A stretch of 64,000 nucleotides of DNA from a virus (IMGVR_UViG_3300020576_007701); one strand, 5' to 3'. Positions 10,261-64,000 are shown, counted from the stretch's first letter. Program-made: numbers and translations. Notes: a model not told the origin generated them from the sequence alone.

Positions 10261-10806
10261 ATGAGCAATATAATACCAACCATACCATCAACTCCACAAA
10301 GTGGTCCACAGCCAGCTGAAACGCCAAAAAGAAAGCGTGGGAGGCCACCTGTAAATGCAGAAGCTCAAAATGCAATGCAAACTATAGCAAAAATACAAGA
10401 AGAAAAAGACAGGGAGAATCTTGAAAAAGAAAAAGAAAGGCTTGAGTTAGAAGCCAAACAAAAAATGGCCATCCTTAATCAGGTTAAGATAAATGAAGCT
10501 CAGGAAAAAATTAAGCGTAAAATACGTGAAGCCGAACAAAAAAGATTAGAAAAAGAAAAACAAGAAAATATAAAAAGTGAACTTGAAAAAAGCTTCGGAA
10601 AAATAGAGTGGAAATCAACTAAATCTGGTTATTTAATTCAAGGATTTTATAAGAAAAAATTAATTTTTGAAATAAAAAGAACACTTTTTTTTAATTTATA
10701 CATTAAAGATAAAACTCTAATGGAAAAGCATAAAGTAAATAAATCTTATGCTGGTTGTTCAATGTTTCTTAAATCTTTGAAGGAGAGATCTGAAAAGCTT
10801 CTTTAA
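10261..10806 (+). CDS. hypothetical protein with AT-hook-like motif
   Basis: KRKRGRPP followed by a charged coiled coil. Confidence 0.55.
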   Translation: MSNIIPTIPSTPQSGPQPAETPKRKRGRPPVNAEAQNAMQTIAKIQEEKDRENLEKEKERLELEAKQKMAILNQVKINEAQEKIKRKIREAEQKRLEKEKQENIKSELEKSFGKIEWKSTKSGYLIQGFYKKKLIFEIKRTLFFNLYIKDKTLMEKHKVNKSYAGCSMFLKSLKERSEKLL

Positions 10807-11548
10807 GCTGCTTTGTAATTTTATCAATTTTATCTTTAAGTTTTCTTCTATCAGCTTTTGCTTTAAGCTCCTGTGGCGTTTGAGGCTTTACAGGTTCTAT
10901 TTTCGGTATAGGTTTAACAGCGGGTTTTATTGCAGGTTTAATTACTGGTTTAGCTTTGACAACAGGTTTTTTTACATCAACTGGTGTAGGAGACACTGGC
11001 GTAGCCATTTTAAGAGCTTTTTGTTTGGCAATAGCCACATTTCTATCAAAAGCAACAATTATTTTTGACATTGCAGAATCATTTGGATTATATGCTCCAT
11101 TAATTCCAGAGGGAGGGCCTTGAAAAAACGCTCCAGTTGGGAACATTGATTTTAAGTTCGAAACCTTTAATAAGCGCCACTCATTTTTTGCTTGAGCACT
11201 ACCTTGTCTGGGATTCGTTTCTAAAGCCTTTTTTTCAGATTGTCCCTCTACGTGAACGCCCCTAATAATCAATTGACCGTTTTTATCATACCCCATAGCA
11301 AAAGGCCAAAAAATACGTTGTTTCCAAATTGGCATCTTATATTTTTCATTATTGCTTTGATATGTAACGCCTATTTCGGCACCTTGCTCAATCCATGTTT
11401 TCATAAGGTTCATGTCAAAAGGAATTCTATTTTTGGAAAAAGCATATGGGTTTGCCACAGCAGAATCTTCCACAATGATCTCAACATTGTCTGGGATTAA
11501 TCCACATAACTCTGCTAATCTTCTTTTATAATCTTCTGATAAAACCAT
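10769..11548 (-). CDS. WYL-like domain protein with putative capsid-targeting leader
   Basis: RIFWPFAMG...IIRG...WRLLKVSNL resembles the WYL pattern; N-terminal LSEDYKRRLAELCGL; VKP/IKP repeats; TATTTAT at 11554-11560 (-). Confidence 0.55.
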   Translation of the reverse strand: MVLSEDYKRRLAELCGLIPDNVEIIVEDSAVANPYAFSKNRIPFDMNLMKTWIEQGAEIGVTYQSNNEKYKMPIWKQRIFWPFAMGYDKNGQLIIRGVHVEGQSEKKALETNPRQGSAQAKNEWRLLKVSNLKSMFPTGAFFQGPPSGINGAYNPNDSAMSKIIVAFDRNVAIAKQKALKMATPVSPTPVDVKKPVVKAKPVIKPAIKPAVKPIPKIEPVKPQTPQELKAKADRRKLKDKIDKITKQLKEAFQISPSKI

Positions 11549-11613
11549 TTTACATAAATATTAAACAAAAAGCTTTTATTTGTCGCAATTTTATATTAAA
11601 TTTATATACAAAT

Positions 11614-12531
11614 ATGCTACTGCCAGTAAACACCGAAGAGACAAAGATACCAGACTTAATAGTTGAAGGTAAAAAAATTCACATTAGCTATAGTGAATTT
11701 TCCTTATTTTACCAGTGTGGCCATAGACACCTTCTTGAAAAACATCTAGCTATTTTAGCACAACCACCATCAATTCATCTATATTTTGGTAATGCAATTC
11801 ACGCTTCTATTGAAACTGTTTTAAAAGAACATTTAGACATTGAGAGTCGTGTGTCTTTTTTTAGAAATACCTTCACTAAATCAATGAAGGAAAATATGAA
11901 GGATACCATTGATTATAAAAACAATTTTGAAGATTTTTTAGATCAAGGTGAAAATATACTTAGAATACTTGATTTTGAAAGCATATTTAAAGATTACGAA
12001 ATTATAGCTATCGAAGAGGCTTTGTATGAAAACTTGCATTCTCACTTTTATTTTAAGGGTTTTATTGACTTAGTTGTTCGTAATAAGATTACAAAAAAAT
12101 ATAAAATATTTGATTGGAAAACATCTGGGTCAGACTGGGATGTTCCTAAAAAAATTAAAGATGAAATATTTCTTGCTCAAATGAGATTCTATAAATTCTT
12201 TTGGGGAAGAAAAAACAATATTCCACTTGAAGATATTGAGTGTGGATACGTTGTTCTTAATAGACTTAGAAATAAAAAAGACCCAAAATCTTATCCAGGA
12301 AATATTCAAAGAGTAGATGTAAATTCTACAAACTCAGAAATAAAAAGTTCTCTTAACAAGCTCGCTCTTGCAGTAAAGTCAATACACATTGACAAATATT
12401 TTCCAAAAATAAAACAAACAGCTGGTACAAATGGCTGCTTCTTTTGCCCACTGAAAGGTGGCAATCACCCACATTGCGATTCTACAAAAAGACAAGACAA
12501 GCTTTTCTTAAAAGAGTATAAGAAAAACTAA
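11614..12531 (+). CDS. PD-(D/E)XK exonuclease, RecB/Cas4-like
   Basis: SYS...C, GNAIH, E, GFIDL, DWKT, Q..FY motifs and C-terminal CFFCP...C (Fe-S type cysteines). Confidence 0.8.
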   Translation: MLLPVNTEETKIPDLIVEGKKIHISYSEFSLFYQCGHRHLLEKHLAILAQPPSIHLYFGNAIHASIETVLKEHLDIESRVSFFRNTFTKSMKENMKDTIDYKNNFEDFLDQGENILRILDFESIFKDYEIIAIEEALYENLHSHFYFKGFIDLVVRNKITKKYKIFDWKTSGSDWDVPKKIKDEIFLAQMRFYKFFWGRKNNIPLEDIECGYVVLNRLRNKKDPKSYPGNIQRVDVNSTNSEIKSSLNKLALAVKSIHIDKYFPKIKQTAGTNGCFFCPLKGGNHPHCDSTKRQDKLFLKEYKKN

Positions 12532-12587
12532 TAGCTACCCTTGTTTTTCTCGCTCAGTATGTTTATATTTTATAAAAATAAAACATC

Positions 12588-12983
12588 ATGGCATACTATA
12601 AAAAAGAAGAGATTGTAGACTATATTAATGTTTCTTGTCAAAGAATTCAAGAAGAAAAACACCATACCGTTACAGATCCAAAAAAAGCACTGCAAGAACT
12701 AACAGATGAACAAGATCTTGTTGGTTTTTTCTGGCTTGAAGTTAATGGCTCTTTAGAAAATGGCGTTGGAATAAAAATGGAGGGTAAAATTTTTGTTAGA
12801 TTAAATTCTGAAATTTATACTGATGATAGATTTGCAATAGATTCATACCACGCAGCCAAAGCTGGCCTACCAGTTACAGATATAATCAAAAAAAGAGAAC
12901 AAGAACAAAAAGAAGCTTCTACAAAAGTGACCCCAGAAATACTTGAATCTTTAAAAGGTTACATTACTGATCCTAAAAAATAA
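12588..12983 (+). CDS. hypothetical protein
   Basis: 131 aa ORF, A-rich leader. Confidence 0.6.
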   Translation: MAYYKKEEIVDYINVSCQRIQEEKHHTVTDPKKALQELTDEQDLVGFFWLEVNGSLENGVGIKMEGKIFVRLNSEIYTDDRFAIDSYHAAKAGLPVTDIIKKREQEQKEASTKVTPEILESLKGYITDPKK

Positions 12984-15276: not shown

Positions 15277-15283
15277 TATTTAT
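15277..15283 (+). promoter_or_regulatory. putative late promoter TATTTAT
   Basis: 25 nt upstream of ATG 15309. Confidence 0.55.
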
Positions 15284-15308: not shown

Positions 15309-15812
15309 ATGAAAATAGAAGAATCAGAATTACAACAAATCATCAAGGAAGAAGCTATTCGTCTTAGAAAGAGAATGATGCTTGAGTCTGAAAAAGAAAA
15401 GATCTTAAAAGAACTTCAAGAAATGGAAGCTTATGAAATGAGTGAGGGAGAAATGGAAGAAGGTTTATTTGACAAGTTTAAAAAAGACTGGCCTGCAGAA
15501 GCAGAAAAATGGATGAATCAACCAAATTTAAGAGCCGCTATGAAAGCAAAAGCTGACTCTATATGGACAAAAGCAATTCAAAATCCAAATTTAGCATGGT
15601 TTCAAAAATTATCAGCTGGTAAAAATTTACAAGATCAAGCTCAACGTGCTGAAGTTTACAAAGCGTGGCTTACTTATTACAGAGACATGTGGAAACAAGC
15701 TTATATTTCTGGACAAGGAACTCCAATTGGTTATGAATTCGACATGGAAAAAGGTGTTTTATTTAAAAACCCTAGTGCTACTGGCGGAAACAACTTTATG
15801 CCTGGTACATAA
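15309..15812 (+). CDS. putative internal head/cargo protein
   Basis: Leader ESELQQIIKEEAIRL...MLESE; Glu-rich N-terminal half; late motif upstream. Confidence 0.5.
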   Translation: MKIEESELQQIIKEEAIRLRKRMMLESEKEKILKELQEMEAYEMSEGEMEEGLFDKFKKDWPAEAEKWMNQPNLRAAMKAKADSIWTKAIQNPNLAWFQKLSAGKNLQDQAQRAEVYKAWLTYYRDMWKQAYISGQGTPIGYEFDMEKGVLFKNPSATGGNNFMPGT

Positions 15813-16312: not shown

Positions 16313-16319
16313 TATTTAT
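16313..16319 (+). promoter_or_regulatory. putative late promoter TATTTAT (endolysin operon)
   Basis: 11 nt upstream of the endolysin ATG, consistent with late timing. Confidence 0.6.
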
Positions 16320-16330: not shown

Positions 16331-17224
16331 ATGGTAAAATTAGGAGATACTGGTTTAGAGGCGACAGAGGTTCAAAAACTTCTTTCTATGCTTGGTTATG
16401 ATTTAATTGTAGATGGAAGCTTTGGGGCAAAGTCGGTTAGATCTTTACAAGCCTTTCAAAAAAAAATGGGCCTTACAGTAGATGGTGAGTGCGGCCCCAA
16501 AACCCTAGAAGCCCTTAAAGCTTCGCAAAAAAGAACAGCAAAAGAAGAAAAATCGCCAGCAAATCCAAAAGATTATGGCGAACTCGTTATAAATAGAACT
16601 GTTCTTTTAGATTCAACACAGTATTTAAGACAAAGCACTCCAAAAGATAAAATATTTATTCACTTTACAGCTGGTGGCCCAAATGCTACTAATGTCATTA
16701 GAGGGTGGGCCGCTGATGAAACAAGGGTTTCTACTGCCTATCTTATAGATGGTGAATCTGGACAGATATTTGAATGTTTTAGCCCAGATTATTGGAGCTT
16801 TCACCTTGGTGTAAAAGGTACGAATGGTGCACTTGATAAAGCATCTATTGGTATAGAAATGTGTAACTGGGGTCCTATCACAAAAAAAGGAGATAAATTT
16901 TTTAATTACGTTAATAGAGAAGTTCCTTCAGATCAAGTACTTACATTAGAAAAACCTTTTAGAGGCTTTAGTTATTTTCATAAAATGACAACCGCACAAT
17001 GGGAGTCTCTTGAAAAATTATTGGAATATTTAATCACTCATTACAACGTATCGGTTCAAAAAATGTTTGACAACAACTGGTTTGAATTTAATCAAGAGCT
17101 TATAGATAAAAAAACACCTGGACTTTGGACGCACACTAATGTTAGAAAAGATAAGACAGATTTTCCACCAACGCCAGAGTTGTTGGATATTTTAAATAGA
17201 CTTGCTAAAAAATTTAACCCTTAA
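16331..17224 (+). CDS. endolysin: peptidoglycan-binding domain plus N-acetylmuramoyl-L-alanine amidase (Amidase_2)
   Basis: VQKLL...VDGSFG...FQKKMGLTVDGECGPKT binding domain; IHFTAG, STAYLID, FHLG, SIGIE, TH...KTD Zn-amidase motifs. Confidence 0.85.
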   Translation: MVKLGDTGLEATEVQKLLSMLGYDLIVDGSFGAKSVRSLQAFQKKMGLTVDGECGPKTLEALKASQKRTAKEEKSPANPKDYGELVINRTVLLDSTQYLRQSTPKDKIFIHFTAGGPNATNVIRGWAADETRVSTAYLIDGESGQIFECFSPDYWSFHLGVKGTNGALDKASIGIEMCNWGPITKKGDKFFNYVNREVPSDQVLTLEKPFRGFSYFHKMTTAQWESLEKLLEYLITHYNVSVQKMFDNNWFEFNQELIDKKTPGLWTHTNVRKDKTDFPPTPELLDILNRLAKKFNP

Positions 17225-17228
17225 TAAT

Positions 17229-17447
17229 ATGGCAGCAGAGGAGTGGAATGAAACCAGGCTAAAATCACTTATAAAAGATACCATGAAACAAGAGTTAAAA
17301 GATCTTAGATATGATATCGAAAAGTTAAGAGAAAAGCAAAATAAAAAAACTGACGAAGAGCAAGTTAGAGAATTGGTTCGTTCTATGATCGTAAACCTTC
17401 ACAAGTTTATGTGGCAAAAATCAAGTACATATATAAAACAAATATAA
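17229..17447 (+). CDS. small protein with putative capsid-targeting leader
   Basis: ATG at 17229 preferred over track start; NETRLKSLIKDTMKQE. Confidence 0.5.
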   Translation: MAAEEWNETRLKSLIKDTMKQELKDLRYDIEKLREKQNKKTDEEQVRELVRSMIVNLHKFMWQKSSTYIKQI

Positions 17448-17448
17448 A

Positions 17449-18159
17449 ATGACACATTCAGATTTACAAAAATTAATAAGAAAAACAATACAATCCACAG
17501 CTTTCGAGAGCTTAAAGGAATTGAAAAACAAATCTGCTGTTAACAACGCAAATGCCAGCTTAAACTCTTCAAGTTTGGCTGAAGACGATATTGACATGGT
17601 TTTGTTTCATGGTGGACATAAAAAACAAGAACCTCAAAAAAGATCACAAATAAAAATTCAAGAAGGAGTTTCTAGTACTTTAAAAATAACAACATCAGAA
17701 ATAAAACAATTTGAAAACAGTTTTCAAAAAATACTTGAAAACATCCCTGGTGCATCTATTGTATTTGATAAGCAGCCAAATGGGTTTTCGATTTCTGCAG
17801 TAAAAAGACCAGACGGCGTAGAGGCAAAATCTTCAGGGACTATTAATCTTGGCGAAAATGGTAAAATTATTTGGTCTTATTCTCTTTTAAATGGTTTTAC
17901 ATTAAATGCTCAAAATTTAAAATTAGCTGATGATAATAAATTAATGTTCGAAGCAATGGCTAATCACTATAATGATTGGCAAAAAAAATGGAGAGAAATG
18001 CTAAATCTTCCTAGCGCACCTGAAGAAAACGGCGATCAAGAGCAGGGTCCAATGCCAAATCAATCAACACCACCTGGTGGTGGCGCTGGTACAATGTCAA
18101 ATGGCGCTGGTGGAGCTGGTCAAGGTGGGGCAGTAGATTCTGGAACAATGGGAATGTAA
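17449..18159 (+). CDS. putative internal head protein
   Basis: Leader SDLQKLIRKTIQS; Gly-rich tail. Confidence 0.5.
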   Translation: MTHSDLQKLIRKTIQSTAFESLKELKNKSAVNNANASLNSSSLAEDDIDMVLFHGGHKKQEPQKRSQIKIQEGVSSTLKITTSEIKQFENSFQKILENIPGASIVFDKQPNGFSISAVKRPDGVEAKSSGTINLGENGKIIWSYSLLNGFTLNAQNLKLADDNKLMFEAMANHYNDWQKKWREMLNLPSAPEENGDQEQGPMPNQSTPPGGGAGTMSNGAGGAGQGGAVDSGTMGM

Positions 18160-20970: not shown

Positions 20971-20982
20971 TATTTATAAATA
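20971..20982. promoter_or_regulatory. palindromic TATTTATAAATA (late motif on both strands)
   Basis: Lies between divergent infC and the 20996 ORF. Confidence 0.55.
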
Positions 20983-20995: not shown

Positions 20996-21658
20996 ATGGA
21001 AAAAAAAGTTCAAAAAATGTCCTTGAATGACTTTAAACAATATATCATTTCCGAAGCAATGAAGATGCTTAACGCTGGAGATCCAATGGAAGTAACCATG
21101 AACAGCATGGATAAATTGGTTGGAAACGACGGTGCTAAAGTAGCAGCAAAGGAAAATGGCGGGTTTGAATCAAAAACCAAAGCACCTGAAGCTGGTTCTG
21201 ACAATATCGAAAAAACAGAAGATACTGTTGATGTTAAAATGAACCAAGCCCCATCTAAGGGTGGAAGTGATGAAAAAGTCGCTGCTGCCGTTGAGGTTGA
21301 AGCTGCTGGTTCTACTAAAAAAGGCGGTTCTGTTGAAGGAATGCACAACGCAGACTTTACTAGTCTAGACAAACAACCTTCCACAAAAGCATCAACCCCG
21401 TTTGAAGAAAAAAAGGGCGAAGTGGATATGAAAGAAATGGACAAAGCTGTTGATGAAGGAACTAAAACTTTTGTTGAAGCTGGCGCTAAAGATAGTACTG
21501 GACAACCAAATTCTAAGTTTTCAGAAGAAGCTAAAAACGAAAAAGAAAAAGAAGAAAGAATTGCAAAAGCAATACAATTGCCAGAATCTTTCAAAAATAA
21601 AAACGAAATGTTAAAATTTATTCAAGAAGAAGCTAAAAAAATAGCAAAACTTCTTTAA
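20996..21658 (+). CDS. putative internal head protein (charged, low complexity)
   Basis: N-terminal NDFKQYIISEAMK and similar C-terminal EMLKFIQEEAKK; late motif upstream. Confidence 0.55.
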   Translation: MEKKVQKMSLNDFKQYIISEAMKMLNAGDPMEVTMNSMDKLVGNDGAKVAAKENGGFESKTKAPEAGSDNIEKTEDTVDVKMNQAPSKGGSDEKVAAAVEVEAAGSTKKGGSVEGMHNADFTSLDKQPSTKASTPFEEKKGEVDMKEMDKAVDEGTKTFVEAGAKDSTGQPNSKFSEEAKNEKEKEERIAKAIQLPESFKNKNEMLKFIQEEAKKIAKLL

Positions 21659-24124: not shown

Positions 24125-24131
24125 TATTTAT
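24125..24131 (+). promoter_or_regulatory. putative late promoter TATTTAT
   Basis: 15 nt upstream of ATG 24147, heading three genes that carry leader motifs. Confidence 0.55.
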
Positions 24132-24632: not shown

Positions 24633-25091
24633 ATGAAAGAAAACGATAGAATGAAAGACCTTGTAGAATTCTACAAAAAGAAAGACGAAATCTTCAAAAA
24701 AGATGTCAAAGAAACAGTTGAAAAAGATCTTTCAAGTGAATACAAGCGTTTAAGCGAATTGGCTGGAGGCAAATTAAATGCCGACTTTAAAGAGGGTTTT
24801 GTTCAAAATTCTACGCCATTTGAAATGGGCGCAGGAAACGTTAGAACGGTAAATACAATAGCCAATGATATGTATGGTAATCCAACAATGGCTTATCAAC
24901 CTATTAGACAGCCTTTACAACCAGATGAAGCTGTAGAGTTAGCAATTACCAGATCTTTAAAATCGGGAGCCCCTGTTAAAGATATGGGCTTTTATGACGA
25001 AGTTAATTGGCATTTACAAACCTTGGGCTTTCCAGCTAAGAATGCTCTAGACATTAAAAACATTATTTTAAAAATGATGTCAAAATCATAA
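24633..25091 (+). CDS. putative internal head protein
   Basis: Contains LSSEYKRLSELAGG motif. Confidence 0.5.
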   Translation: MKENDRMKDLVEFYKKKDEIFKKDVKETVEKDLSSEYKRLSELAGGKLNADFKEGFVQNSTPFEMGAGNVRTVNTIANDMYGNPTMAYQPIRQPLQPDEAVELAITRSLKSGAPVKDMGFYDEVNWHLQTLGFPAKNALDIKNIILKMMSKS

Positions 25092-25615
25092 TGGAAAAAA
25101 AGTTTCTAAATGAAGAGATTGTAGAGAAGCTAAAAAGCATTATCTCAGAAGTAGGTGAATACAACTATAATAAAAGTTTTTCGCCACCAGATAATGTTGC
25201 CAAAAAATCAAGAGAGGCGTTATCTCAAATTTCTTCTATAGATCATACAATTGAAAATACCGAGCAGGGATCTGGAAAAGAAAAAGCCTTGGAGTTAGCT
25301 GAAAAAAAGACTCAAAATGTAGAGCAAATGAAAAAGCTTGCTTCTTTCTTTAGTACCAATGCTGCAATCATAACAAGGATAAAACAGCAAGGTGGTCCAA
25401 AAACAGATGAGGAAAGACATGCTCTGCAAGGGTGGAATTTGCGTGGCGCAGAAGCTGGTAATCAATGGGTAAAAAATGAACTTGAAAGATTTCATCGTGA
25501 AAACCAAAGCACAAAAGACAATCTTAGAAAAGCTGGCGGTGCAGGAACAAATAAAGGGATGGGTGTTTTTGCTAAAAATGTACTTGATACAAATAAACAA
25601 AGAATTCATAGATAA
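25091..25615 (+). CDS. putative head-associated protein
   Basis: Leader FLNEEIVEKLKSIISE, then a PP..V...AL / KKLASFF / W.L.G...G..W domain I recognise from phage head-region proteins. Confidence 0.45.
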   Translation: MEKKFLNEEIVEKLKSIISEVGEYNYNKSFSPPDNVAKKSREALSQISSIDHTIENTEQGSGKEKALELAEKKTQNVEQMKKLASFFSTNAAIITRIKQQGGPKTDEERHALQGWNLRGAEAGNQWVKNELERFHRENQSTKDNLRKAGGAGTNKGMGVFAKNVLDTNKQRIHR

Positions 25616-30423: not shown

Positions 30424-31254
30424 CTACTTTATTTTATAAAGCACATCATCATCTTCACCAGGTTCAACTTCCTCTTGGTCAAATTCCATTACGATAAATT
30501 GTTTTTGATCAGCTTCATTTAAGTTGGCGCTCTCAACTTTATCAGTATCCATGTTTTTTAAAAAGCTTTTTTCGCCTTCTTGTATACCAGCAAGGGCCTT
30601 CATTCTCTTAACAGACTCACTAAGCGCTTTCTTATCCTGATTATCAACTCTTTTTTCAGCTTCTTTTTCTTTTGATAAAAGTCCAGTCTTAGGATCTGAA
30701 TAATATTTAGGGTCTTCAACAAGATGATCCATAACAATTTCTTTTTGTTTGTCTTTTGAGTTGCTATGCTCATTTTCAACTCCAATACCTATTTTTATCT
30801 CCTTTTCAATTTCGGCTATGCCAATGCCATGTTTTTTAGCAATATCTTCCATAGACATTTTATCTGCTTTTCCACCCTTTATTATATTTTCTCCTAAATT
30901 TGTGTGCATAATTTCAATTTTTTTTAATTTACTTGGTTCGTTTACTATAAACTCAGCTTCTCCAATATTACAAATATCTCCTTCTGGATAATAGTCAGTT
31001 GAAAATGGGTCAGCATTTCCAAAATTTGTGTTCTGATCAACGCTAATTCCTAAAACTACACCATGTGGTCCAGCATGTGTTTCAGCAAGGCCAAAGTCAT
31101 CAGTGATAGAAAAATCTCCGCCAAAAGCTTGTTGTGCGTTTGGTATTAATCCATTTTTTAAAAAACTTTTCAGTCTTTCACCTGAAATTCCGTGATAATA
31201 ATACCTTTTGTTATAAGGTTTATTTTCTTGTTCTAAAGCAGATAATTGTTTCAT
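30424..31254 (-). CDS. ADP-ribosyltransferase-like domain plus DUF5661-like domain
   Basis: YYHGIS...LKNGL...FSIT....A...VVL...EFIV ART-fold pattern; KGGKAD...GIGVENEH...DHLVEDPKYY; C-terminal LSESVKRMKALAGI. Confidence 0.55.
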   Translation of the reverse strand: MKQLSALEQENKPYNKRYYYHGISGERLKSFLKNGLIPNAQQAFGGDFSITDDFGLAETHAGPHGVVLGISVDQNTNFGNADPFSTDYYPEGDICNIGEAEFIVNEPSKLKKIEIMHTNLGENIIKGGKADKMSMEDIAKKHGIGIAEIEKEIKIGIGVENEHSNSKDKQKEIVMDHLVEDPKYYSDPKTGLLSKEKEAEKRVDNQDKKALSESVKRMKALAGIQEGEKSFLKNMDTDKVESANLNEADQKQFIVMEFDQEEVEPGEDDDVLYKIK

Positions 31255-35855: not shown

Positions 35856-35862
35856 TTTTTAT

Positions 35863-41840: not shown

Positions 41841-41865
41841 GATAATTTATACCTATAAATAGCAC

Positions 41866-42455: not shown

Positions 42456-42902
42456 ATGAATAAAATTGAAAAACAAATTAGAAATGACGTTTCAGATCTT
42501 GATGATAACGCATTCGACAAATTACACATCAGTAAATTAGTTGGTTATGCTGAGATGTTTGGAAATGATTTTATCCCCTTGTACAAAGGAGTTAATTACA
42601 CGCCATTTAAAACCCCTGGAAAGGCTATTGAGGCTATAGAGTCAATTAATCTAAAGGCAATGTACACGACTGGCGACTTGGAAACTGTCATAGGTCATTT
42701 AAAGCTTGATGATGGCACCACAATTCTTTTACAAGATAAAGAGCAATATCTACAAAAGCTAGCAAAACAATATGCAGATGATGGTGTTGAACTTGAAGAA
42801 GATGAAAGTTATGATGGTATGGCTCTAGAATGGTACTACTATAACACCATTGGTGGTTATATGGAAGGTATACCAGCTTTTGCGGTTTTATATTCCAAAT
42901 AA
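42456..42902 (+). CDS. hypothetical protein
   Basis: ATG 42456 preferred; C-terminal ALEWYYYNTIGGYM..P pattern. Confidence 0.55.
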   Translation: MNKIEKQIRNDVSDLDDNAFDKLHISKLVGYAEMFGNDFIPLYKGVNYTPFKTPGKAIEAIESINLKAMYTTGDLETVIGHLKLDDGTTILLQDKEQYLQKLAKQYADDGVELEEDESYDGMALEWYYYNTIGGYMEGIPAFAVLYSK

Positions 42903-43252
42903 TATTTTTTAATAAGATCTGGAAATTTATTGCTAAACATTTCTTGCGAATTTATAAAAAACTCTTTTTCGCCTTTGTTTATAATTATGTTGGCATAGGC
43001 TGGGTTAGAATTTCTTAATGCATAAATTATATCCCCATTAGATAGAGTAACTATAAATTTACTTACATCATCTAAACTGAGCTTGCCTTCAATTTTTATA
43101 GGTTTTAATTCTTTTAAGGATTCTTTGTATTGTTCGCCAATAGCCTGGGCAAAACCCCTTTTCTTCTCGTCGTCAATAGAAATTTTTATCTCACACAATA
43201 AAGCACTACCCTCAATTGTTTCTCTTATTAAATTTCTAATGTATCCTTTCAT
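42857..43252 (-). CDS. putative internal head protein
   Basis: Leader MKGYIRNLIRETIE; TATTTAT at 43257-43263 (-). Confidence 0.55.
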   Translation of the reverse strand: MKGYIRNLIRETIEGSALLCEIKISIDDEKKRGFAQAIGEQYKESLKELKPIKIEGKLSLDDVSKFIVTLSNGDIIYALRNSNPAYANIIINKGEKEFFINSQEMFSNKFPDLIKKYYLEYKTAKAGIPSI

Positions 43253-43273
43253 AATAATAAATATGCCGATATT

Positions 43274-44656
43274 TTAGTTCATCCACAAATTTTTGTGATC
43301 AGATAAAAACCTTTTTATATCTTCGGCTCTATTTTTTATTTCGCCCCTGTAAATAGCTTGCAAGGCTTCTTTTTTAGCCTTGCCCATTTTTTGAAAATCT
43401 CTTTTTTCGTTAAAATCTAAACCAGATTGTTCAACCGAATCAATCACAAAATCAATGAATTCCTGTTTCCTTAAATCAATATCATTTACAGTTTTTGGCA
43501 ATTCCCCATTTGCAAATTTTCTTGCCAATTCTTTATCTTTTGTTTCAACGTATGAAGATTCCAACAACATAATTGGAGATAGATTAAACAGTGAAGCGAT
43601 AGCATTTATGTGAGAAATAGCATCCACGCTTCTACCTTTTACTTCTAACACATATTTGCACAGTGCTTGAATATATTTTACATCTTCTGTTTTAGTGGTA
43701 ATATTCTTTGTGGAAAGTTGTAAAATTTTCTCAGGAGCCTCTGATTCAAATAGCATATAGCAAAACTCTGGAATGTTTCCAACCAAATCAAATTTTTTAT
43801 AATCTGAAATTTTAGAATCTAAACCAAACATTGCTTTGTAAGCACCCAAGTCAACCAATAACTTAACAGCTCTACCTAAATCAGTCTTTCCAATCATCTT
43901 TTCGAATTCCATTAAAAATCTTTCTCTTGGAAGCTCGTTTTTATCGGCAAGCATTTGAACATTATTTCTTATTAAATTAAGAGTTTCTTCATCCCACTGA
44001 TAATTAAATCTTGCTGCAAATCTAATTGCTCTAACAATTCTAAGAGGATCTTCAATAAATGCGTCTGCACTTACAGCACGTATAACACCACCCAATATGT
44101 CTTTAAGAGCGTGACCATTATCAATAAAGTTTCCATTTAAATCAAGAGCAATGGCGTTGATTGTAATGTCACGTCTAGCCAAATCATCTTGAATGGTGTA
44201 CATTGGATTTACATCGCTTTTTATAGCACGATGCCCTTTTTCATTTGGATCTTTACTATCTTTTCTTGGCAACATTACATCAATGTCTCTTTTTAATCCA
44301 ACATTTTTCATCATTTGGTTAAAAACGGAATTGTGAGAAACAAATTTGGTAGCACCAAAATCTTTTTTACCTTGTTCGTCAACCACAGATGTGTCAGTGG
44401 CTTTTCCATATTTGGACAAAATTTGAAATAATTGTTCGTATGGAATGCCACGAACAACAATGTCTAGGTCATCGCTTGGTTTGCCCATTACTGCATCTCT
44501 GACAATTCCGCCAACAGCATAAATTTCTCCGCCAGCTGCCAAAATATCACTTTTAAATTCTAACATGTTTAGAATTTTTACCAGCTTGTTTTTTTGACCT
44601 TCAGTGGATTCAGATAAAATCTTTCTTACTTCCAGTCTTAATTTATTCTCCTTCAT
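43274..44656 (-). CDS. cca: class II tRNA nucleotidyltransferase (CCA-adding / poly(A) polymerase family) with extra N-terminal leader
   Basis: VGGIVRD...DLDIVV, DLARRDITINA, EDPLRIVRAIRFAARF, ERFLMEF; leader KLRLEVRKILSES. Confidence 0.85.
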   Translation of the reverse strand: MKENKLRLEVRKILSESTEGQKNKLVKILNMLEFKSDILAAGGEIYAVGGIVRDAVMGKPSDDLDIVVRGIPYEQLFQILSKYGKATDTSVVDEQGKKDFGATKFVSHNSVFNQMMKNVGLKRDIDVMLPRKDSKDPNEKGHRAIKSDVNPMYTIQDDLARRDITINAIALDLNGNFIDNGHALKDILGGVIRAVSADAFIEDPLRIVRAIRFAARFNYQWDEETLNLIRNNVQMLADKNELPRERFLMEFEKMIGKTDLGRAVKLLVDLGAYKAMFGLDSKISDYKKFDLVGNIPEFCYMLFESEAPEKILQLSTKNITTKTEDVKYIQALCKYVLEVKGRSVDAISHINAIASLFNLSPIMLLESSYVETKDKELARKFANGELPKTVNDIDLRKQEFIDFVIDSVEQSGLDFNEKRDFQKMGKAKKEALQAIYRGEIKNRAEDIKRFLSDHKNLWMN

Positions 44657-44658: not shown

Positions 44659-45519
44659 TTACGATTTTTTTATAATTAAAAATTTTTCATATTTTCTTTT
44701 TAACCCTATTCGATCATTTTCAAAATTTTTATAAATAAAATTTCCAAGTTTTTTAATTCCTTCTTTATTACTAATTATAATTCTTGAAAACTTATGTCCG
44801 TTTTTTTGAATTAATCTTTGAATGTGATAATTTATGTTTAATTTATTAAATATTTCTTCTATAAAATTCCAATTTTGTTCATATCCGCTTACTATATTAA
44901 AAGTGTATATTTTATTTTTAATTGAAAAAAAATTACCATCTCCATCTATCAGACCCAATAAAAAATAAGAGTGCAAATCTTCTTTTATATATTTTAAAAT
45001 TGAGGTCCCTTTTATTTTGTTAGAAAAATTATTTTTATTTAAAAAATCACACAAAAAGCTATTAGAAACATGCATTCCAATTTGTGGCTTACCAAGTTTT
45101 TGTTGTCTTGAATAATAATTCCAATCCCCAATTCTATTAAAAACAGTCTTCAAATCACTCATGTCATTTTCAATCAAATACATCCATACATCTCTATCCA
45201 CACCTTCTTTGTTAGCTCCTATATAGCCGTCAGCCCATAAAAAACCTAAAAAATAGGCAACTTCTTTTTTATCAACATATTCAAATTGCTTATGATTAAC
45301 TTTAAATTTCGAATCATTTGTTTTTTTATTTATACCTTTAAGCGCTACTTTTTTTATTTCTCTTAAAGAATCTTTATCTACTTTTAAACTTAACTCCCTA
45401 GCTTTATCTGAAACTGAACTTTTAGGTCTATTAATTAATGTTAAACAATATTGGAGTCCATTTTTAGGATAATTCTTTATTAATATTTCTATTTCTTCTT
45501 TAGTCCATTTTGTTTTCAT
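44659..45519 (-). mobile_element. free-standing double-motif LAGLIDADG homing endonuclease
   Basis: AYFLGFLWADG and FLLGLIDGDG, LKRK; N-terminal WTKEE HTH; TATTTAT at 45531-45537 (-). Confidence 0.85.
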
Positions 45520-45549
45520 ATTTTTTTAAAATAAATATGTATAAAACAA

Positions 45550-45897
45550 CTAAATCAGGTATTTTTTTTGAAATTTTTTAAAATTATTTAAAATACTATT
45601 TATATTTTCATATCCGCAAGGGTTTGCTGAATGCACATTAAAGTCATTAAAAACAATATTGTTATCCATACAAAAATCAATTAAAAATTTAGCACAAGTC
45701 ATACCAGTATTTTCTTCACCAGTTTCAATGTTTATATCGCTCAAATCATGATCGAAAGAAATAAAAGATGGGACACCATATTGATTTATGGTATCTTTGA
45801 AGTCGGTTAAGTTTCTCACAATAAACCAATCTTCATTTTTATCTTTTGGATAAATGTCTCCAGGGACTCTAATATCGTCTAAAAATATTTTGTACAT
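45550..45897 (-). CDS. cyclic-phosphate-processing receiver domain protein
   Basis: IFLDDIR.P...VRN...ISFDHDL...TG..CAKFL...HSANP.G..NI; ATG 45897 preferred over track start. Confidence 0.75.
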   Translation of the reverse strand: MYKIFLDDIRVPGDIYPKDKNEDWFIVRNLTDFKDTINQYGVPSFISFDHDLSDINIETGEENTGMTCAKFLIDFCMDNNIVFNDFNVHSANPCGYENINSILNNFKKFQKKYLI

Positions 45898-45925
45898 TTT
45901 TTTAATAAATATAGCTATTTTAACC

Positions 45926-45955
45926 TTATACGCCAAAAAGCTAAAAAAGGTTTCA
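45926..45955 (-). promoter_or_regulatory. ECF-sigma-like promoter TGAAAC-N17-CGTATAA
   Basis: Upstream of the receiver gene; a TATTTAT also lies at 45905-45911 (-). Confidence 0.6.
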
Positions 45956-46706: not shown

Positions 46707-46735
46707 TGAAACCTTTTTCGTATATTTGCGTATAA
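46707..46735 (+). promoter_or_regulatory. overlapping ECF-like (TGAAAC-N16-CGTATAA) and sigmaA-like (TATATTTG, 46721-46728) promoters of the NAD operon
   Basis: Both motifs lie in the 50 nt before the pncB ATG. Confidence 0.65.
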
Positions 46736-46756
46736 GATAATAAATTAATACAAGAA

Positions 46757-52518: not shown

Positions 52519-52550
52519 CGATTATAGTTTGTTTTTTGACTAACATTCTT

Positions 52551-52558
52551 TACATTTG
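52551..52558 (+). promoter_or_regulatory. Bacteroidota sigmaA-type promoter
   Basis: TACATTTG with TTTG 19 nt upstream (52528-52531). Confidence 0.6.
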
Positions 52559-52561
52559 TAA

Positions 52562-53270: not shown

Positions 53271-53849
53271 ATGAAGAATATAATTTTAATAGGACCTCCT
53301 GGAGCTGGTAAAGGAACTCAAGCAAAAATATTAGCTCAAAAATATGGTTATGTTCACATATCCACTGGAGACCTAATCAGAGAAGAACAAGTAAAAGACA
53401 CAGCTATTGGAAAATTAGCTAAAAGATTAATTGATCAAGGTAATTTTTTGCCAGATGAAATAACAATACAAATTGTTAAACAAAAAATACTTGACAACAT
53501 TAATGTTCCTGGATTTATATTTGATGGATTCCCAAGAACCGTAGAACAAGCTAAGGCTTTGGATTTTTTTCTCATCAATAGAAAGACACCAATAAATAAT
53601 GTTTTGTTTTTCGAACTCGCAGATGAAGTTATCAAGAGCAGAATAGAAGAAAGATCAAAGACAGAAAATAGAGCGGACGACAACTCTTCTGTTATAGAAA
53701 CTAGAATTCACAACTATAAAACTAAAACAGTGCCAATAAAAGATTATTATCAAGATAGTCGCTTATTTGGAAATAAAATGCTTAATACCATAAATGGAAA
53801 CAATTCACTAGAAATGGTTACTCTTGAAATAGAAGAAGTTATTTCTTAG
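53271..53849 (+). CDS. adk: adenylate kinase (short form, lid-less)
   Basis: GPPGAGKGTQA, HISTGDLIR, FDGFPRTVEQA, RADD; ATG 53271 preferred. Confidence 0.92.
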   Translation: MKNIILIGPPGAGKGTQAKILAQKYGYVHISTGDLIREEQVKDTAIGKLAKRLIDQGNFLPDEITIQIVKQKILDNINVPGFIFDGFPRTVEQAKALDFFLINRKTPINNVLFFELADEVIKSRIEERSKTENRADDNSSVIETRIHNYKTKTVPIKDYYQDSRLFGNKMLNTINGNNSLEMVTLEIEEVIS

Positions 53850-54304
53850 TATTTTGAAGGGTCTATTTTTGAAGAATATTTGTTATTAATCAAACTAACA
53901 AATTTATCATAACCATTAACATTATTTAAATCAGCTATCAAAACAGGTAGCTGATTTTTTTCTCCCCTAAGTATTTGTCCTATTTTAAGCGACCAATAAC
54001 TGGCACCATCTTCTCCGATTGTTCTATATATGTCAATTAACATCATAGAGTCATGAACTGTCTCAAATTCAAATTGCCACAATTCTTCGTTTTCGCTTTT
54101 TGGTAAGTAGTCAGTTAACCTGTATCTGTTTAGGTTTATTATATCAGTGGCCAATGTATTTTCGCCAAAAGATCTACCATTCTGATAATTGTGTATTATT
54201 TGAGTCTTATAATCTGGCGCTGTAGCAACAAACACATTTTCATTTAAAGCGTCCAGAACAACGGATAGTTGATCTCTTATTATTTTTTTTAATATAAAAC
54301 TCAT
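53846..54304 (-). CDS. putative internal head protein
   Basis: Leader ILKKIIRDQL...LNE; TATTTAT at 54320-54326 (-). Confidence 0.5.
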   Translation of the reverse strand: MSFILKKIIRDQLSVVLDALNENVFVATAPDYKTQIIHNYQNGRSFGENTLATDIINLNRYRLTDYLPKSENEELWQFEFETVHDSMMLIDIYRTIGEDGASYWSLKIGQILRGEKNQLPVLIADLNNVNGYDKFVSLINNKYSSKIDPSKY

Positions 54305-54352
54305 ACCTTATATTTTATTATAAATATAAAGCAATTTTCGCAATGTCTGGGT

Positions 54353-55764: not shown

Positions 55765-55959
55765 ATGGCAGATTTAACTACAATCAAAACACAAATTTCA
55801 GCTTTAAGCTACGAAGACAAAATCGCTCTTAGCTCTTGGATTCACACAGAAATTCAAGCTGGTATGGCTGAAAATACAAAAAAGTCTATGGAAAAACTAG
55901 ATACTAAAACAGAAGGTTTTTTAAACAAAGCAAGAAGCATTTTTAAAATTAATTCCTAG
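55765..55959 (+). CDS. hypothetical protein
   Basis: 64 aa ORF with A-rich leader. Confidence 0.55.
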   Translation: MADLTTIKTQISALSYEDKIALSSWIHTEIQAGMAENTKKSMEKLDTKTEGFLNKARSIFKINS

Positions 55960-56549
55960 CGATTGTTATATTTGTTTTTAAAAAATTCTTTTGATAGAAT
56001 TGATATTTGTTGTGGTGTAACATTGTATTTCTCTTGAAATATTATTCCCTTATCCATTAATTTTTTATAAAACACAGAAGGTTTTCTGTAATATAAACAA
56101 TTCAATACCGCTGGCATTGAATCTTCTCCAGTAATGTACCTTTCAGAGTATTCAACATCCCCTGGTACAATTTGTTTTTTTGTTATATCTGATCTTAAAT
56201 CGTGGAAAATTTTCCAAACCCCGTAAGCTTTAGGGGTTATATTTCCAGTTCTATCTGGTGTAAGTCCCATTGGAAAAATATCCATCATTCCAAGTTCATA
56301 TATTGTTGGACCAATACCATTTTCTGCAGCAACATTTACGACCACACATTGTCTTGGCGATGATTGTTTCATTGAAATAACAGCCAAGCATTTAACCTCA
56401 TTAAAATCAAATAAAGTAAGTTGTCTTTCCTGACCAACCATTTCATCCACCAAACCAACATGTGGACCAAGCGACATTAAACTAGGTGCTATCTCGCTTA
56501 TGATTGATTCCTCAAGTGTTTTTTTGATTATATCTCTTACGTTAATCAT
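55956..56549 (-). CDS. GNAT-like acetyltransferase with putative capsid-targeting leader
   Basis: VVNVAAENGIGPTIYE...LTPDR...ITPKAYGVW; leader VRDIIKKTLEESIISE; TATTTAC at 56555-56561 (-). Confidence 0.45.
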   Translation of the reverse strand: MINVRDIIKKTLEESIISEIAPSLMSLGPHVGLVDEMVGQERQLTLFDFNEVKCLAVISMKQSSPRQCVVVNVAAENGIGPTIYELGMMDIFPMGLTPDRTGNITPKAYGVWKIFHDLRSDITKKQIVPGDVEYSERYITGEDSMPAVLNCLYYRKPSVFYKKLMDKGIIFQEKYNVTPQQISILSKEFFKNKYNNR

Positions 56550-57499: not shown

Positions 57500-59350
57500 T
57501 TAAACCGTTACAATAGTAACCGTATTATTCGCTTGGAGATACTGAATATCTCCGTCTGGACTTCCAGCATTTGCTGTCATTCTACTACTAGGAACAACAA
57601 GTGTGATCACTTTTCCAGTGATTCCAAGAAACACTCCATTGTCGGCCACAGAACTTCCAATAGATGTACAAGCACTTAAATTTATATAAGTCAAATTTCG
57701 ACAATTTTTAAACGCATGATTAGATACCGTTGTTGCACTTGGTAATGTTATTGATGCAAGTGAAACACAATTTGTGAAAGCAGACGTTCCAATGTTTGTA
57801 GCTCTATATAATCCTACATTAGTTAAAGCAGAACAATTATAAAAAATTCTACTTTGAACTGTGGTTGCAGAAGCTGTAACACCAGTTAGCGACCAACAAT
57901 CTTCAAATGCGTTATTTGAAGAAGTAAAAGTTGTTGCTCCGATATTTCCAATACCAATCAAAGATGTACACCCAGAAAAAACTGCACCTGCCACAAATCC
58001 ATTTAGCGATGGGAAATTCAAAAAAGTTAAACCTGTACAATTTCTAAACGAAGTTGTTCCTATACTTGTTAATGATGGCAACGACACATTCGTTAAACGC
58101 ACACAATTATCAAAGTCACTATTTATAGATATTACATTATTTAATGTAACACTTGTCAAAAATGTACAACGAGCAAAAGAACCTGTTGAAGTAGTAACAG
58201 AAGATAAATTCACACTTCTTAAATTAGTATAACCAGAAAAGGTATTTGTTAGTGCACGCCCATAACCAACGTTTAACAAACTATCATTAAGCGTTGGCGT
58301 AAACATAGATAAATTTATGTCAAATATATCACCAACAACAACAGCTTTTGGTATATTTAAACTCGTTAAACCTGAACATTGTGAAAAAATTTTAGTTCCA
58401 AGATATAAAACATCTGGTAAATCAACGGTTGTTAATGAATTACAATTAAGAAAATTATATCCAATACCACCAACGCTATTATATCCAAAATCTTCTGTGT
58501 TTGTAATTGTTACACTTGTAAGAGCAGAGCAGTTTAAAAAAGTATAATCTTCCATGGTTGTTGGGCCAACTATATTTACAGATTTTAAACTTGTATTATT
58601 TGAAAAACAAGCCTCTCCTATGGATATTAAATTTGGAAATGCACTAGATGTTAAAGTCGAACCAAATAAATTAGAACTCGTAAATGCTGATGTAGATGCG
58701 TCAGTTAAAGATGAAAATACCGTAGGAGTTGTTGTGTTAATTCCAGAAAAAGCAGTGGAACCTATTGTTGTAACGCCACCCAATTCAATATTTATCAAAG
58801 AGCTTTGCCCCTTAAAAGCATTATTTGGAATAGTTGTCAATCCAGGCAAACTAACACTTTTCACATCTCTCATGTTTAAAGTTGAACCTATAGATGTAAT
58901 AGCACTTAAATTATCATTAATACCAATCATGTTAGCTGGAAATGTTGTTGCGTTTAAATTTATTGCGCTTCCTCCAGTTAAATATAATCCATCGCCATCC
59001 ACATTTAAAGTGGTGAAAGGAGAACCATTTGTCGGTAGATTAAATAATGTATTCCACCCAGAAACAGTTGTGGCTGTGCTTGGCCAGCTTTGTTGAGGAA
59101 ATGAAAATATGGTTGCAGGTCCATAATTTGGACTTGGCCCATCCAAATCGACATCCTCAACCAAGTTTCTTGACAAAGAGGTGTTTGCTTTGCGCACCTT
59201 TAAGCCAAACAAATTTCTAAAAACCTGACTTTCAGATGTTAAATCATGAAGATTTATTGTCTGAAGAGGACCAATGTTTACTTTCTTAAGTTGACCATTT
59301 ACCTTATAGGCTATTTGTCTAATTACGCTATCGTTGTTAGTTACTAGCAT
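57500..59350 (-). CDS. BspA-type leucine-rich repeat (LRR_5) protein
   Basis: Many ~22 aa repeats of type IG..AF.NC..L..V.LP; TATTTAT at 59358-59364 (-). Confidence 0.85.
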   Translation of the reverse strand: MLVTNNDSVIRQIAYKVNGQLKKVNIGPLQTINLHDLTSESQVFRNLFGLKVRKANTSLSRNLVEDVDLDGPSPNYGPATIFSFPQQSWPSTATTVSGWNTLFNLPTNGSPFTTLNVDGDGLYLTGGSAINLNATTFPANMIGINDNLSAITSIGSTLNMRDVKSVSLPGLTTIPNNAFKGQSSLINIELGGVTTIGSTAFSGINTTTPTVFSSLTDASTSAFTSSNLFGSTLTSSAFPNLISIGEACFSNNTSLKSVNIVGPTTMEDYTFLNCSALTSVTITNTEDFGYNSVGGIGYNFLNCNSLTTVDLPDVLYLGTKIFSQCSGLTSLNIPKAVVVGDIFDINLSMFTPTLNDSLLNVGYGRALTNTFSGYTNLRSVNLSSVTTSTGSFARCTFLTSVTLNNVISINSDFDNCVRLTNVSLPSLTSIGTTSFRNCTGLTFLNFPSLNGFVAGAVFSGCTSLIGIGNIGATTFTSSNNAFEDCWSLTGVTASATTVQSRIFYNCSALTNVGLYRATNIGTSAFTNCVSLASITLPSATTVSNHAFKNCRNLTYINLSACTSIGSSVADNGVFLGITGKVITLVVPSSRMTANAGSPDGDIQYLQANNTVTIVTV

Positions 59351-62462: not shown

Positions 62463-62953
62463 TGGAACAAGCTGAAGAACCAAGATTAACAATAGAACAT
62501 TTTAAATCAGACACATTTAAGGGATTTTTTGTAGAGGTTATTAAAGATGCCACAAATTTTCACATTTCTTCAAGCAAAGAACTAAATTACACAGAAGTAG
62601 TTTTTGACGATCCAACAAATTATTGCATACATATTGATGCTCCAATGTTTGAAGGAGTTTACGAAATAAATGGGCGTATAATAAAAGAAGGCATCGAGTA
62701 TGTTGTTATTACCAAAACACATTTCCCTGGCGAAGAATTATCTTATGAAGAAAGAATTTATTGGTATCACAAATATTGCGTTTTAAATAGAAAAAAACTA
62801 GAAAACAAGCCAACTCTACAAGAGTTGTTAGAACAATATAAAGATCAAAAAGATATTGATTATCTTCCAATTATAGGCACCAAATTCGTTGAATATATTC
62901 CAAGATATGTACACGAGGATCGCATGAACAGAAATAGACCAAGAATAAAATAA
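62462..62953 (+). CDS. hypothetical protein
   Basis: 163 aa ORF. Confidence 0.55.
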   Translation: MEQAEEPRLTIEHFKSDTFKGFFVEVIKDATNFHISSSKELNYTEVVFDDPTNYCIHIDAPMFEGVYEINGRIIKEGIEYVVITKTHFPGEELSYEERIYWYHKYCVLNRKKLENKPTLQELLEQYKDQKDIDYLPIIGTKFVEYIPRYVHEDRMNRNRPRIK

Positions 62954-62971
62954 ACCCACGCTTTTCTCGCC

Positions 62972-62978
62972 TATTTAT
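62972..62978 (+). promoter_or_regulatory. putative late promoter TATTTAT
   Basis: 7 nt upstream of ATG 62986. Confidence 0.55.
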
Positions 62979-62985
62979 ATCTTAG

Positions 62986-64000
62986 ATGGACAGTCTAAGA
63001 AATATCATACGTCAAACGCTCAGCGAAGCTTTTAAAAGAAAACACTATACACGCTGGAAAACAATAGAAGAAGATGAAGAAATATTCGCTTCTGTTGAAC
63101 GTGACATTGCTACGAAAATAGCAGATAAACTCAATCTTAACAGACTGTCTTTTCTTGATAGTGGTACATCTGGTTTCGCATATCATATACCCAACAATAG
63201 GGTTCTTAAAATTACAAAAGATAAATCTGAAGTCGTAAACTCAAAAAAAATTCAAGGCAAATCAATGAAGCATCTTGCTAATATTTACGAGACCTACTCA
63301 CTTCAGGGCAAATACAATGGCACCTATGTTGTTATTTCAGAATTTCTTTCATATGACGAAAAAATAGAAGACGGTGAATATAAATTTGCCAGATTTTGTA
63401 AATCTGAATTACAAGCAACAGCACATCAAGTATTTACATATTACTACAAAGGACAATCAGGAGATGACTACATAGATCTTCTTATTGAAAAAATTAAACG
63501 AACACACGAACAAGAAGACTCAGAGCTTATAGTTTGGTACTTAAAACAAATGTGTGGAATAATAAAAGATCTAAAAAACAACGATATTATTACTCAAGAT
63601 TGGGGAGCTCAAAATCTCGGCCTTAAACGCAATGGTAATATTGCCATGTTTGATCTTGGATATGGTGAAAATAAAAAAGTCCACACAAATCAACTTCAAA
63701 TCAACGAAGAAGCCGAAAATATGACCCGTATGGATTACCCAGACTTCCTGGATACACAATATAACCCAAACATGGAAAACTCTCCATACCCTCCAATGAC
63801 AAACCCAAACAGGGCTCCAATGAGAGAAGTACAATTATCCCCAGAGGAAGTAAACAAAAAAAATCTTCCTTTGCAATACCATAATCTTTGGAGTGAATTC
63901 TTACAAGCAAATCAAGCTGCGCTTGGCGACATACTTCCAACTCTTAGAAGACAATACTCTAACCTGGAAACACTTCAAACAGTAAAAGATGTTGAAAAAG
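62986..64000 (+). CDS. protein-kinase-like fold protein with putative capsid-targeting leader (runs off the window end; not in ORF track)
   Basis: Translated by hand: MDSLRNIIRQTLSEAF..., Gly loop LDSGTSGFAY, VLKIT...E, catalytic QDWGAQN, FDLG; no stop to 64000. Confidence 0.7.
   Translation, partial: MDSLRNIIRQTLSEAFKRKHYTRWKTIEEDEEIFASVERDIATKIADKLNLNRLSFLDSGTSGFAYHIPNNRVLKITKDKSEVVNSKKIQGKSMKHLANIYETYSLQGKYNGTYVVISEFLSYDEKIEDGEYKFARFCKSELQATAHQVFTYYYKGQSGDDYIDLLIEKIKRTHEQEDSELIVWYLKQMCGIIKDLKNNDIITQDWGAQNLGLKRNGNIAMFDLGYGENKKVHTNQLQINEEAENMTRMDYPDFLDTQYNPNMENSPYPPMTNPNRAPMREVQLSPEEVNKKNLPLQYHNLWSEFLQANQAALGDILPTLRRQYSNLETLQTVKDVEK

Follow-up and report, generated by a model that had tools for sequence, protein, structure and literature searches.

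The question raised by the window analysed here, a 64,000-nucleotide stretch of viral DNA (IMGVR_UViG_3300020576_007701) that corresponds to bases 88,941-152,940 of a 152,940-bp contig of about 31% G+C, is why otherwise unrelated proteins encoded on both of its strands start with a similar short leader ending in [IL]-x-E. In phage T4, the internal proteins are loaded into the prohead core, and gp21 removes the capsid-targeting sequence (CTS) at their N-terminus by cutting after Glu. A sequence-only reading of the window had listed twelve open reading frames (ORFs) with such a leader and proposed that it loads many enzymes into the head; all twelve ORFs are present and have the N-termini that were quoted. 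Because the leaders end in a T4-type protease cut site, the proteins are probably loaded into the capsid, and with moderate confidence we regard the leaders, by analogy, as prohead-targeting propeptides of the T4 kind, by which dispersed and unrelated late proteins would be brought into the head.

The machinery for T4-type loading is encoded by the phage. Outside the window, the genome carries a head module of the T4 type, with the protease, scaffold and capsid genes arranged as in T4: a Peptidase_S77 prohead protease of the T4 gp21 family (genome 30015-30683; PF03420, E 1.9e-32; phrog_207, E 4e-52), an acidic coiled-coil scaffold protein (genome 28537-29940) encoded between the capsid and protease genes, and a Gp23-family capsid protein (genome 26793-28451; PF07068, E 7e-73). 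Among isolates, Flavobacterium phage immuto is the closest, with 44% identity in the capsid protein, and Rhodothermus phage RM378 comes next; on the grounds of the T4-order head module and these nearest isolates the source is an uncultured 'far-T4' myophage, probably of Bacteroidota. For comparison we also used two metagenomic relatives, G1 (52.6 kb, syntenic with window positions 1-45,900) and G2 (96 kb, comprising the structural half). Small leader-bearing proteins adjoin the protease here, as they do in immuto and in the 25 metagenomic head loci that were fetched. At least two leader families belong to immuto itself, and five of its proteins share one of these; leader-bearing proteins of immuto start at 81525, 102294, 102880, 113188 and 123355 in its record, and others form an F-D-L-K-K-F-L family. 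In 10 of 11 relatives, with identities as low as 39%, the protease itself carries [IL]-x-E at its residues 9-11, matching the LIE-9 site of T4 gp21 (PMC9026906), and in the T4 record gp22, gp24, gp67 and gp21 all start with a short segment that ends in hydrophobic-x-Glu before a small residue. The proposal of T4-type capsid loading is thus borne out as far as the machinery, the site on the protease and the neighbours of the protease gene are concerned, whereas the loading step is argued from analogy.

Comparison of the N-termini gave two tight classes of leader, which stand firmly, and a number of looser cases. Class A has the form F-[KR]-x-Y-[IV]-I-S-E/A (the slash marks the predicted cut) and is found in window genes 20996 and 41913 and in gene 30792 of the genome, which lies in the head module; the N-terminus of the protease is a shortened form of it. 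Gene 20996 (20996-21658, plus strand) encodes an acidic, low-complexity protein of 220 amino acids, for which no Pfam or PHROG family was found. Its leader (residues 1-20, 20996-21055), ending I-S-E/A, is identical in G1, and a TATTTAT box precedes the gene at 20971-20977. The 133-residue product of gene 41913 (41913-42314, minus strand; TATTTAT box at 42335-42341) has a leader of residues 1-19 (42258-42314) with the same I-S-E/A ending, and the motif is kept in the G1 orthologue.

Class B, [LIV]-R-x-[IL]-I-[RK]-x-T-[LI]-x-E, comprises window genes 42857, 55956, 62986 and 53846 and genome gene 24205, and gene 43274 fits it more loosely (the last and 62986 are described below). The leader of the 131-residue product of gene 42857 (42857-43252, minus strand) consists of residues 1-11 (43220-43252) and ends I-R-E/T; in the G1 orthologue the leader is a variant that follows this pattern too, and the TATTTAT box (43257-43263) is just 11 nt before the ATG. 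Gene 53846 (53846-54304, minus strand; 152 amino acids) is class B-like, with its first [LI]-x-E at residue 22 (54239-54304) and a TATTTAT box at 54320-54326; its product matched no family, and the ESM Atlas gave no usable match. In the 197-residue product of gene 55956 (55956-56549, minus strand) L-E-E occurs at residue 14 and I-S-E at residue 19 (56493-56549), and the leader is kept in four of four homologues with both E14 and E19 invariant. Upstream of this gene the only box is one with a mismatch (TATTTAC). The protein had no Pfam match; its AlphaFold2 model (mean predicted local distance difference test score, pLDDT, 58.6) gave weak top Foldseek rows, mostly GNAT acetyltransferases (E 0.16-0.5), which is a hint that the fold may be GNAT-like. 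In the family of genome 24205, I7 and E9 never change, whereas the positions around them vary.

Beyond residue 25 the leader proteins are unrelated, as an all-against-all BLAST comparison of the mature parts (residues 26 to the end) yielded no match below E 0.03. A shared leader on unrelated ORFs, as the sequence-only reading had it, therefore holds for classes A and B, and the remaining listed ORFs follow the pattern more loosely. The core set, in which we have fair confidence, would consist of two class A and four or five class B window genes together with genome 24205, genome 30792 and the protease.

The claim that the leader is an addition to enzymes agrees with what was found for the predicted tRNA CCA-adding enzyme (43274-44656, minus strand; 460 amino acids), whose leader, residues 1-16 (44609-44656), ends L-S-E/S. 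Sequence matches (PF01743, the PolyA_pol head domain, E 9e-15; PF12627, the RNA-binding domain, E 4e-5; PDB 1miv, E 2e-19) place this predicted protein in the Class II CCA-adding enzyme/poly(A) polymerase family. The Pfam head domain begins at residue 45, and residue 41 aligns to residue 18 of 1miv, so that the phage enzyme is about 23 residues longer at its N-terminus. By inspection, a leader of this pattern heads the large majority of 120 listed homologues (55-79% identical); its sequence varies, as does the length of the linker after it. With a loose pattern, 66 of 110 were scored. The syntenic CCA protein of G1 is only 28% identical in its body, yet 11 of its first 16 residues match. A scan of viral contigs found no close relatives of the CCA gene.

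Some further features of this locus were observed. The CCA gene forms an RNA-repair pair with a cREC_REC gene (45550-45936), and the two are fused into one protein in 8 of the 120 homologues. Between the two genes lies a LAGLIDADG endonuclease gene (44659-45519) with a TATTTAT box of its own (45531-45537), and in G1 (364-2781) a related endonuclease splits the CCA gene into two ORFs.

A second case in which the leader behaves as a module is the kinase-like protein encoded by gene 62986 (62986-64000, plus strand), which runs off the contig end and is 360 amino acids long in full (P0001). Its leader, residues 1-14 (62986-63027), ends L-S-E/A, and a TATTTAT box is located at 62972-62978. The leader is present in 17 of 20 homologues. 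Two of them, P0013 and P0020, are leaderless and start within a few residues after the predicted cut; in P0014 and P0018 an extra domain of about 170-200 residues, to which no family was assigned, separates the leader, still at the extreme N-terminus, from the kinase. These forms uphold the modularity that had been claimed for the leader of this protein. No Pfam match was obtained. AlphaFold2 models the leader as a helix of residues 2-16 (pLDDT about 40) that is detached from a confident core, with coil in between; for the core, the top 50 Foldseek matches are aminoglycoside phosphotransferases, namely APH(2'') enzymes, together with YtaA and MAP kinases (E about 1e-4, probability 1.0, low TM-scores of 0.25-0.3). 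A Gly-rich loop, the beta3 Lys, the catalytic D-x-x-x-x-N and D-[FL]-G are present, K75, N210 and D223 are invariant and D205 nearly invariant among the homologues, and the protein is thus predicted to have a bilobal protein-kinase-like fold. In the homologues P0008 and P0019 a P-loop kinase domain (PF13671) is inserted. We also considered a circular contig, in which ORF 62986 would close at base 1; this was rejected because the identical protein on record has 360 amino acids, which exceeds the reading across the junction.

It could be argued that for much of the set there is no tag, that the proteome of an AT-rich phage commonly has amphipathic helices with much K, I, L and E at its N-termini, which the eye then groups, and that the true paralogous leaders are few. 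A regular expression in the style of the sequence-only reading matched 11 of 5,520 N-terminal positions and 5 of 41,705 interior positions, but since it had been built from N-termini, unbiased tests were added. De novo expectation maximization (EM) on residues 2-31 of all proteins produced a K-K-I-I-K-E-A-L-E-type motif with a log-likelihood of 171, compared with 146-150 for shuffled sequences and 137-143 for interior or C-terminal segments. In a similarity graph of N-terminal 28-mers there were 56 edges, six triangles and a largest component of 21, with genome 24205 and window genes 53846, 55956, 42857 and 62986 as hubs, whereas interior, C-terminal and shuffled controls gave 23-40 edges, no triangles and largest components of 4-7. 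When only other genomes (immuto and the distant head loci) were used, EM arrived at the same motif, L-L-K-R-L-I-K-E.

A number of results nevertheless weigh against a targeting role for the whole set. The matrix derived from the other genomes was enriched just 2.3-2.7-fold here (p 0.004-0.01), its hits showed no association with TATTTAT (p 0.4-0.8), and it ranked the natural N-termini of ThyA and thioredoxin level with real candidates, a Rossmann enzyme also being among the top-scoring N-termini. The largest graph component holds obvious chance links, for example zinc-finger-like N-termini. [LI]-x-E occurs within residues 6-26 in 16 of 18 candidates, a set picked partly on that feature, and in 27% of all other proteins. 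The predicted propeptide lengths (9-24 residues) are more variable than in T4. Several TATTTAT boxes are just 11-14 nt from the ATG, and 8 of the 120 CCA homologues have the leader inside the protein, after a cREC_REC domain. Nor are the leaders better conserved than the rest of their proteins: identity between this genome and G1 and G2 was 0.69 in residues 2-21 and 0.70 in the remainder (0.76 and 0.72 for other proteins; p 0.89), a test that does not discriminate.

As a general pattern, the leader motif carries little information, as its modest enrichment and the ThyA and thioredoxin matches make clear, and it is too weak to define the set by itself. The claim of an enriched motif is sustained in that EM and the graph surpass shuffles, interiors and C-termini, and is curtailed by the small enrichment found with the independent matrix. 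Abundant helices and chance would, however, not account for the lower likelihood and the missing triangles of shuffles that keep composition, for near-identical 8-10-mers of classes A and B on unrelated proteins, for the pattern being retained in most of the listed CCA homologues and in the kinase homologues despite residue drift, or for the same motif arising de novo from other genomes. We therefore consider it rather unlikely that much of the set lacks a tag.

The preferred reading, that of T4-type propeptides, also implies late expression. TATTTAT occurs 63 times in the window (42 ± 6 expected); sense copies peak 20-29 nt upstream of the ATG (28 genes) and antisense copies are flat. The box is flanked by T-rich sequence upstream and by A-rich sequence downstream, with a near-invariant A-A five bases downstream, and in G1, G2 and immuto it peaks at the same position. 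The genes behind it include those for the capsid, scaffold, protease, tail and baseplate, and because it heads structural genes TATTTAT is a structural, late-type promoter box. Ten of the twelve listed genes lie in units headed by TATTTAT, compared with 32 of 70 others (p 0.016), and six of the twelve have their own box directly upstream, compared with 14 of 70 others (p 0.036). The association between box and leader is thus real but modest, and the earlier reader may have favoured genes behind boxes. That the listed genes lie behind TATTTAT can be accepted to this extent; a fused 'promoter-plus-leader cassette', which had also been proposed, cannot, since half of the genes are without a box of their own.

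By inspection, metabolic and early-looking genes tend to be preceded not by TATTTAT but by TAnnTTTG (window 4480-4494, 35860-35886, 46730-46756 and 52540-52561), a host-like box, namely the -7 element of Bacteroidota. By a loose rule 26 genes belong to TAnnTTTG units, and the two boxes suggest a two-promoter programme. TATTTAT is also found 14 nt upstream of a gene (57500-59350, minus strand) for a BspA-type leucine-rich-repeat protein of 616 amino acids (PF13306, E 2e-52), which may be a host-binding or an internal virion protein.

Alternatively, the leaders may be real shared modules with another job, such as docking to the membrane, to a chaperonin or to each other, or keeping enzymes inactive until cleavage, with neither packaging nor injection involved. 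The detached helix in the models would suit such a function, the computed results do not separate 'cleaved' from 'packaged', and the internal leader after cREC_REC in some CCA homologues, which fits a module that is cut out, fits equally well a linker or docking helix within an RNA-repair module. We regard this explanation as quite unlikely: leader-type proteins are encoded within the head module, adjoining the protease, in every relative examined, the end of the leader agrees with the cut site that is kept on both the protease and T4 prohead proteins, and the leader genes use the promoter of the structural genes. It is highly improbable that the constraint acts on RNA, by providing the context in which translation starts on late mRNAs that are leaderless or have short leaders, in a host without Shine-Dalgarno pairing, for although boxes 11-29 nt from the ATG imply very short 5' untranslated regions and the upstream regions are A-rich with no Shine-Dalgarno-like sequence, capsid and tail genes with the same promoter have no leader, and synonymous changes at codons whose amino acid is conserved are about as frequent in the leaders (45/149, 30%) as elsewhere (439/1,188, 37%), which indicates that the constraint acts on the peptide.

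If the leaders are propeptides of the T4 kind, the following course of events can be envisaged. TATTTAT promoters would express a dispersed set of unrelated proteins late in infection. The first 9-24 residues of each, an amphipathic helix ending in [IL]-x-E, would dock the protein into the scaffolding core during prohead assembly, and the gp21-type serine protease would then cut after the Glu, leaving the mature protein in the head, from which it may exit with the DNA. Cleavage, packaging, co-injection and a role against host defences are what we infer from T4. A more far-reaching version, which we put forward only tentatively as possible, is that in this lineage of far-T4 Bacteroidota phages several interchangeable address tags load swappable cargo (the CCA enzyme, the kinase and small proteins) into the capsid for delivery with the DNA, the bodies being exchanged between close relatives and the tags kept; classes A and B would be two of the tags, and a copy of the R-M-x-x-L-A-G-I tail of the scaffold (see below) a possible third.

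The looser members of the set are window genes 15309, 17229, 17449, 25091 and 33794. Gene 15309 (15309-15812, plus strand; 167 amino acids; I-K-E at residues 12-14, 15309-15353; TATTTAT box at 15277-15283) had the top score with the matrix from other genomes. Its first 58 or so residues are about 80% identical to those of the G1 protein and the remainder cannot be aligned, so that the leader region appears to have been kept and the rest swapped. Two looser ORFs lie on the plus strand in the region 17202-18159, namely 17229-17447, without [LI]-x-E, and 17449-18159, which encodes 236 amino acids with L-K-E at residue 24. Gene 25091 (25091-25615, plus strand; 174 amino acids; I-S-E at residue 20) comes third in a unit that starts behind the TATTTAT box at 24125-24131. 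Gene 33794 (33794-34054, minus strand; 86 amino acids; V-K-E at residue 16) overlaps the end of gene 34051-34683, and the nearest sense box (34734-34740) is 51 nt before the latter gene. The leaders of 15309, 17449 and 25091 are retained in G1, in which 17229 and 33794 had no match. An endolysin gene (PG_binding_1 and Amidase_2; 16331-17224, plus strand) heads a TATTTAT unit (box at 16313-16319); the two genes that follow it are the looser-leader ORFs 17229 and 17449, in which no membrane segment was predicted by eye.

Most of the cargo is small and without an assigned fold, or of low complexity or disordered. Several of the proteins are acidic or Gly-rich and of low complexity, more like internal head proteins. 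When ten leader proteins were compared with Pfam and PHROGs, the CCA enzyme alone could be named, and a permissive Pfam run returned only noise. The statement that 'many enzymes' are tagged was therefore an overstatement: it applies to the CCA enzyme by its Pfam match, to the predicted kinase-like fold and, with a weak leader only (L-K-E at residue 14, followed by I), to a protein of 563 amino acids (40149-41840, minus strand) that is a fusion of a nucleotidyltransferase (PF01909, residues 59-126) with an Acb1-like 2H-phosphoesterase (PF13563, PF02834 and PF23474, residues 301-406). The fusion gene has a TATTTAT box (41855-41861) and an orthologue in G1. The fusion protein passes the Pfam threshold for the Acb1 family, which acts against CBASS (cyclic-oligonucleotide-based antiphage signalling; 29.8 bits, cut-off 27), and could be a candidate cyclic-nucleotide or RNA-end processing enzyme.

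A conserved [KR]-R-x-[KR]-x-L-A-G-[ILM] tail forms the C-terminus of the scaffold proteins in the whole clade, from this phage through to those like immuto. This motif recurs at the C-terminus of a second coiled-coil protein (genome 41951-42862) and near that of the DUF5661 protein encoded at window 30424-31254, and is found at the N-terminus of two immuto proteins. Degenerate copies are present at the N-terminus of window 10769-11548 and in residues 36-46 of window 24633-25091. It may be a shell-binding tail reused as a second address tag. A third class of N-terminal leader, K-R-R-L-A-E-L-x-G-L, was abandoned as it had only two degenerate cases in the genome, and was recast as a look-alike of the scaffold tail. 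A tblastn search with one late protein gave no match in the phage collection.

Should the leaders prove to be packaging tags, the 'internal protein' trick that T4 uses for three proteins would be a general and expandable delivery system in abundant environmental phages. A tRNA-repair enzyme or a kinase delivered ready-made along with the DNA would be active ahead of all phage gene expression, just when defences based on tRNA cutting or abortive infection are triggered. Virion cargo could then be predicted by means of the tags, from sequence alone, in uncultured T4-like phages, and the tags might be used as short, portable aids to the packaging of foreign proteins in Bacteroidota phages, among which the cultured immuto has leaders of the same families. 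In a limited literature search we found neither a report of expanded CTS-like leaders in Bacteroidota phages nor a virion proteome of this phage or a close relative.

The system most similar to the leader set is the T4 CTS, MKTYQEFIAE (PMC8442874), a 10-residue N-terminal tag that suffices for loading (PMC9026906). As far as can be judged from sequence, the leaders appear to share every defining feature of the CTS system that a sequence can reveal: a tag of about ten residues ends in hydrophobic-x-Glu and stands on otherwise unrelated proteins, in a genome that encodes a protease of the gp21 family, a scaffold like gp22 and a shell of the gp23 family. Class A resembles the CTS in having an aromatic residue, two residues, a second aromatic residue and then I-x-E/A, in segments too short for statistics, whereas class B is more like T4 gp24, and the N-terminus of the protease like gp21, with hydrophobic pairs followed by x-E at residues 9-11. 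The T4 system is experimentally established; the likeness to it is known here from the sequences. Unlike in T4, there are at least two leader classes instead of one, with lengths of 9-24 residues, and about a dozen candidates instead of three internal proteins plus Alt; the T4 cargo is small and basic, whereas here it includes a predicted CCA-adding enzyme and a kinase-like protein, and the genes are dispersed on both strands. The propeptides of T4 gp22, gp24, gp67, gp68 and gp21 are on structural or core proteins, in contrast to leaders found here on proteins encoded far from the head module. In comparison with the CTS, the novelty would lie in having several classes of leader, a larger number of candidates, cargo that includes enzymes, and genes that are dispersed.

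In the giant phages phiKZ, 201phi2-1 and SPN3US the cut motif is reported to be small-x-Glu. As proposed for the present phage, these viruses have many head-packaged proteins, some of them enzymes, that are processed after Glu by a gp21-related protease (PMC5694885, PMC7411985); their propeptides are long and mutually unlike and their packaging was established by mass spectrometry, whereas here a short common tag has been recognized in sequence. A precedent for enzymatic cargo is T4 Alt, an enzyme that is loaded by means of an N-terminal propeptide cleaved by gp21 and delivered for host take-over (PMC9026906). Alt is a packaged and injected ADP-ribosyltransferase that is also cut at its C-terminus, and its enzyme activity differs from those predicted here.

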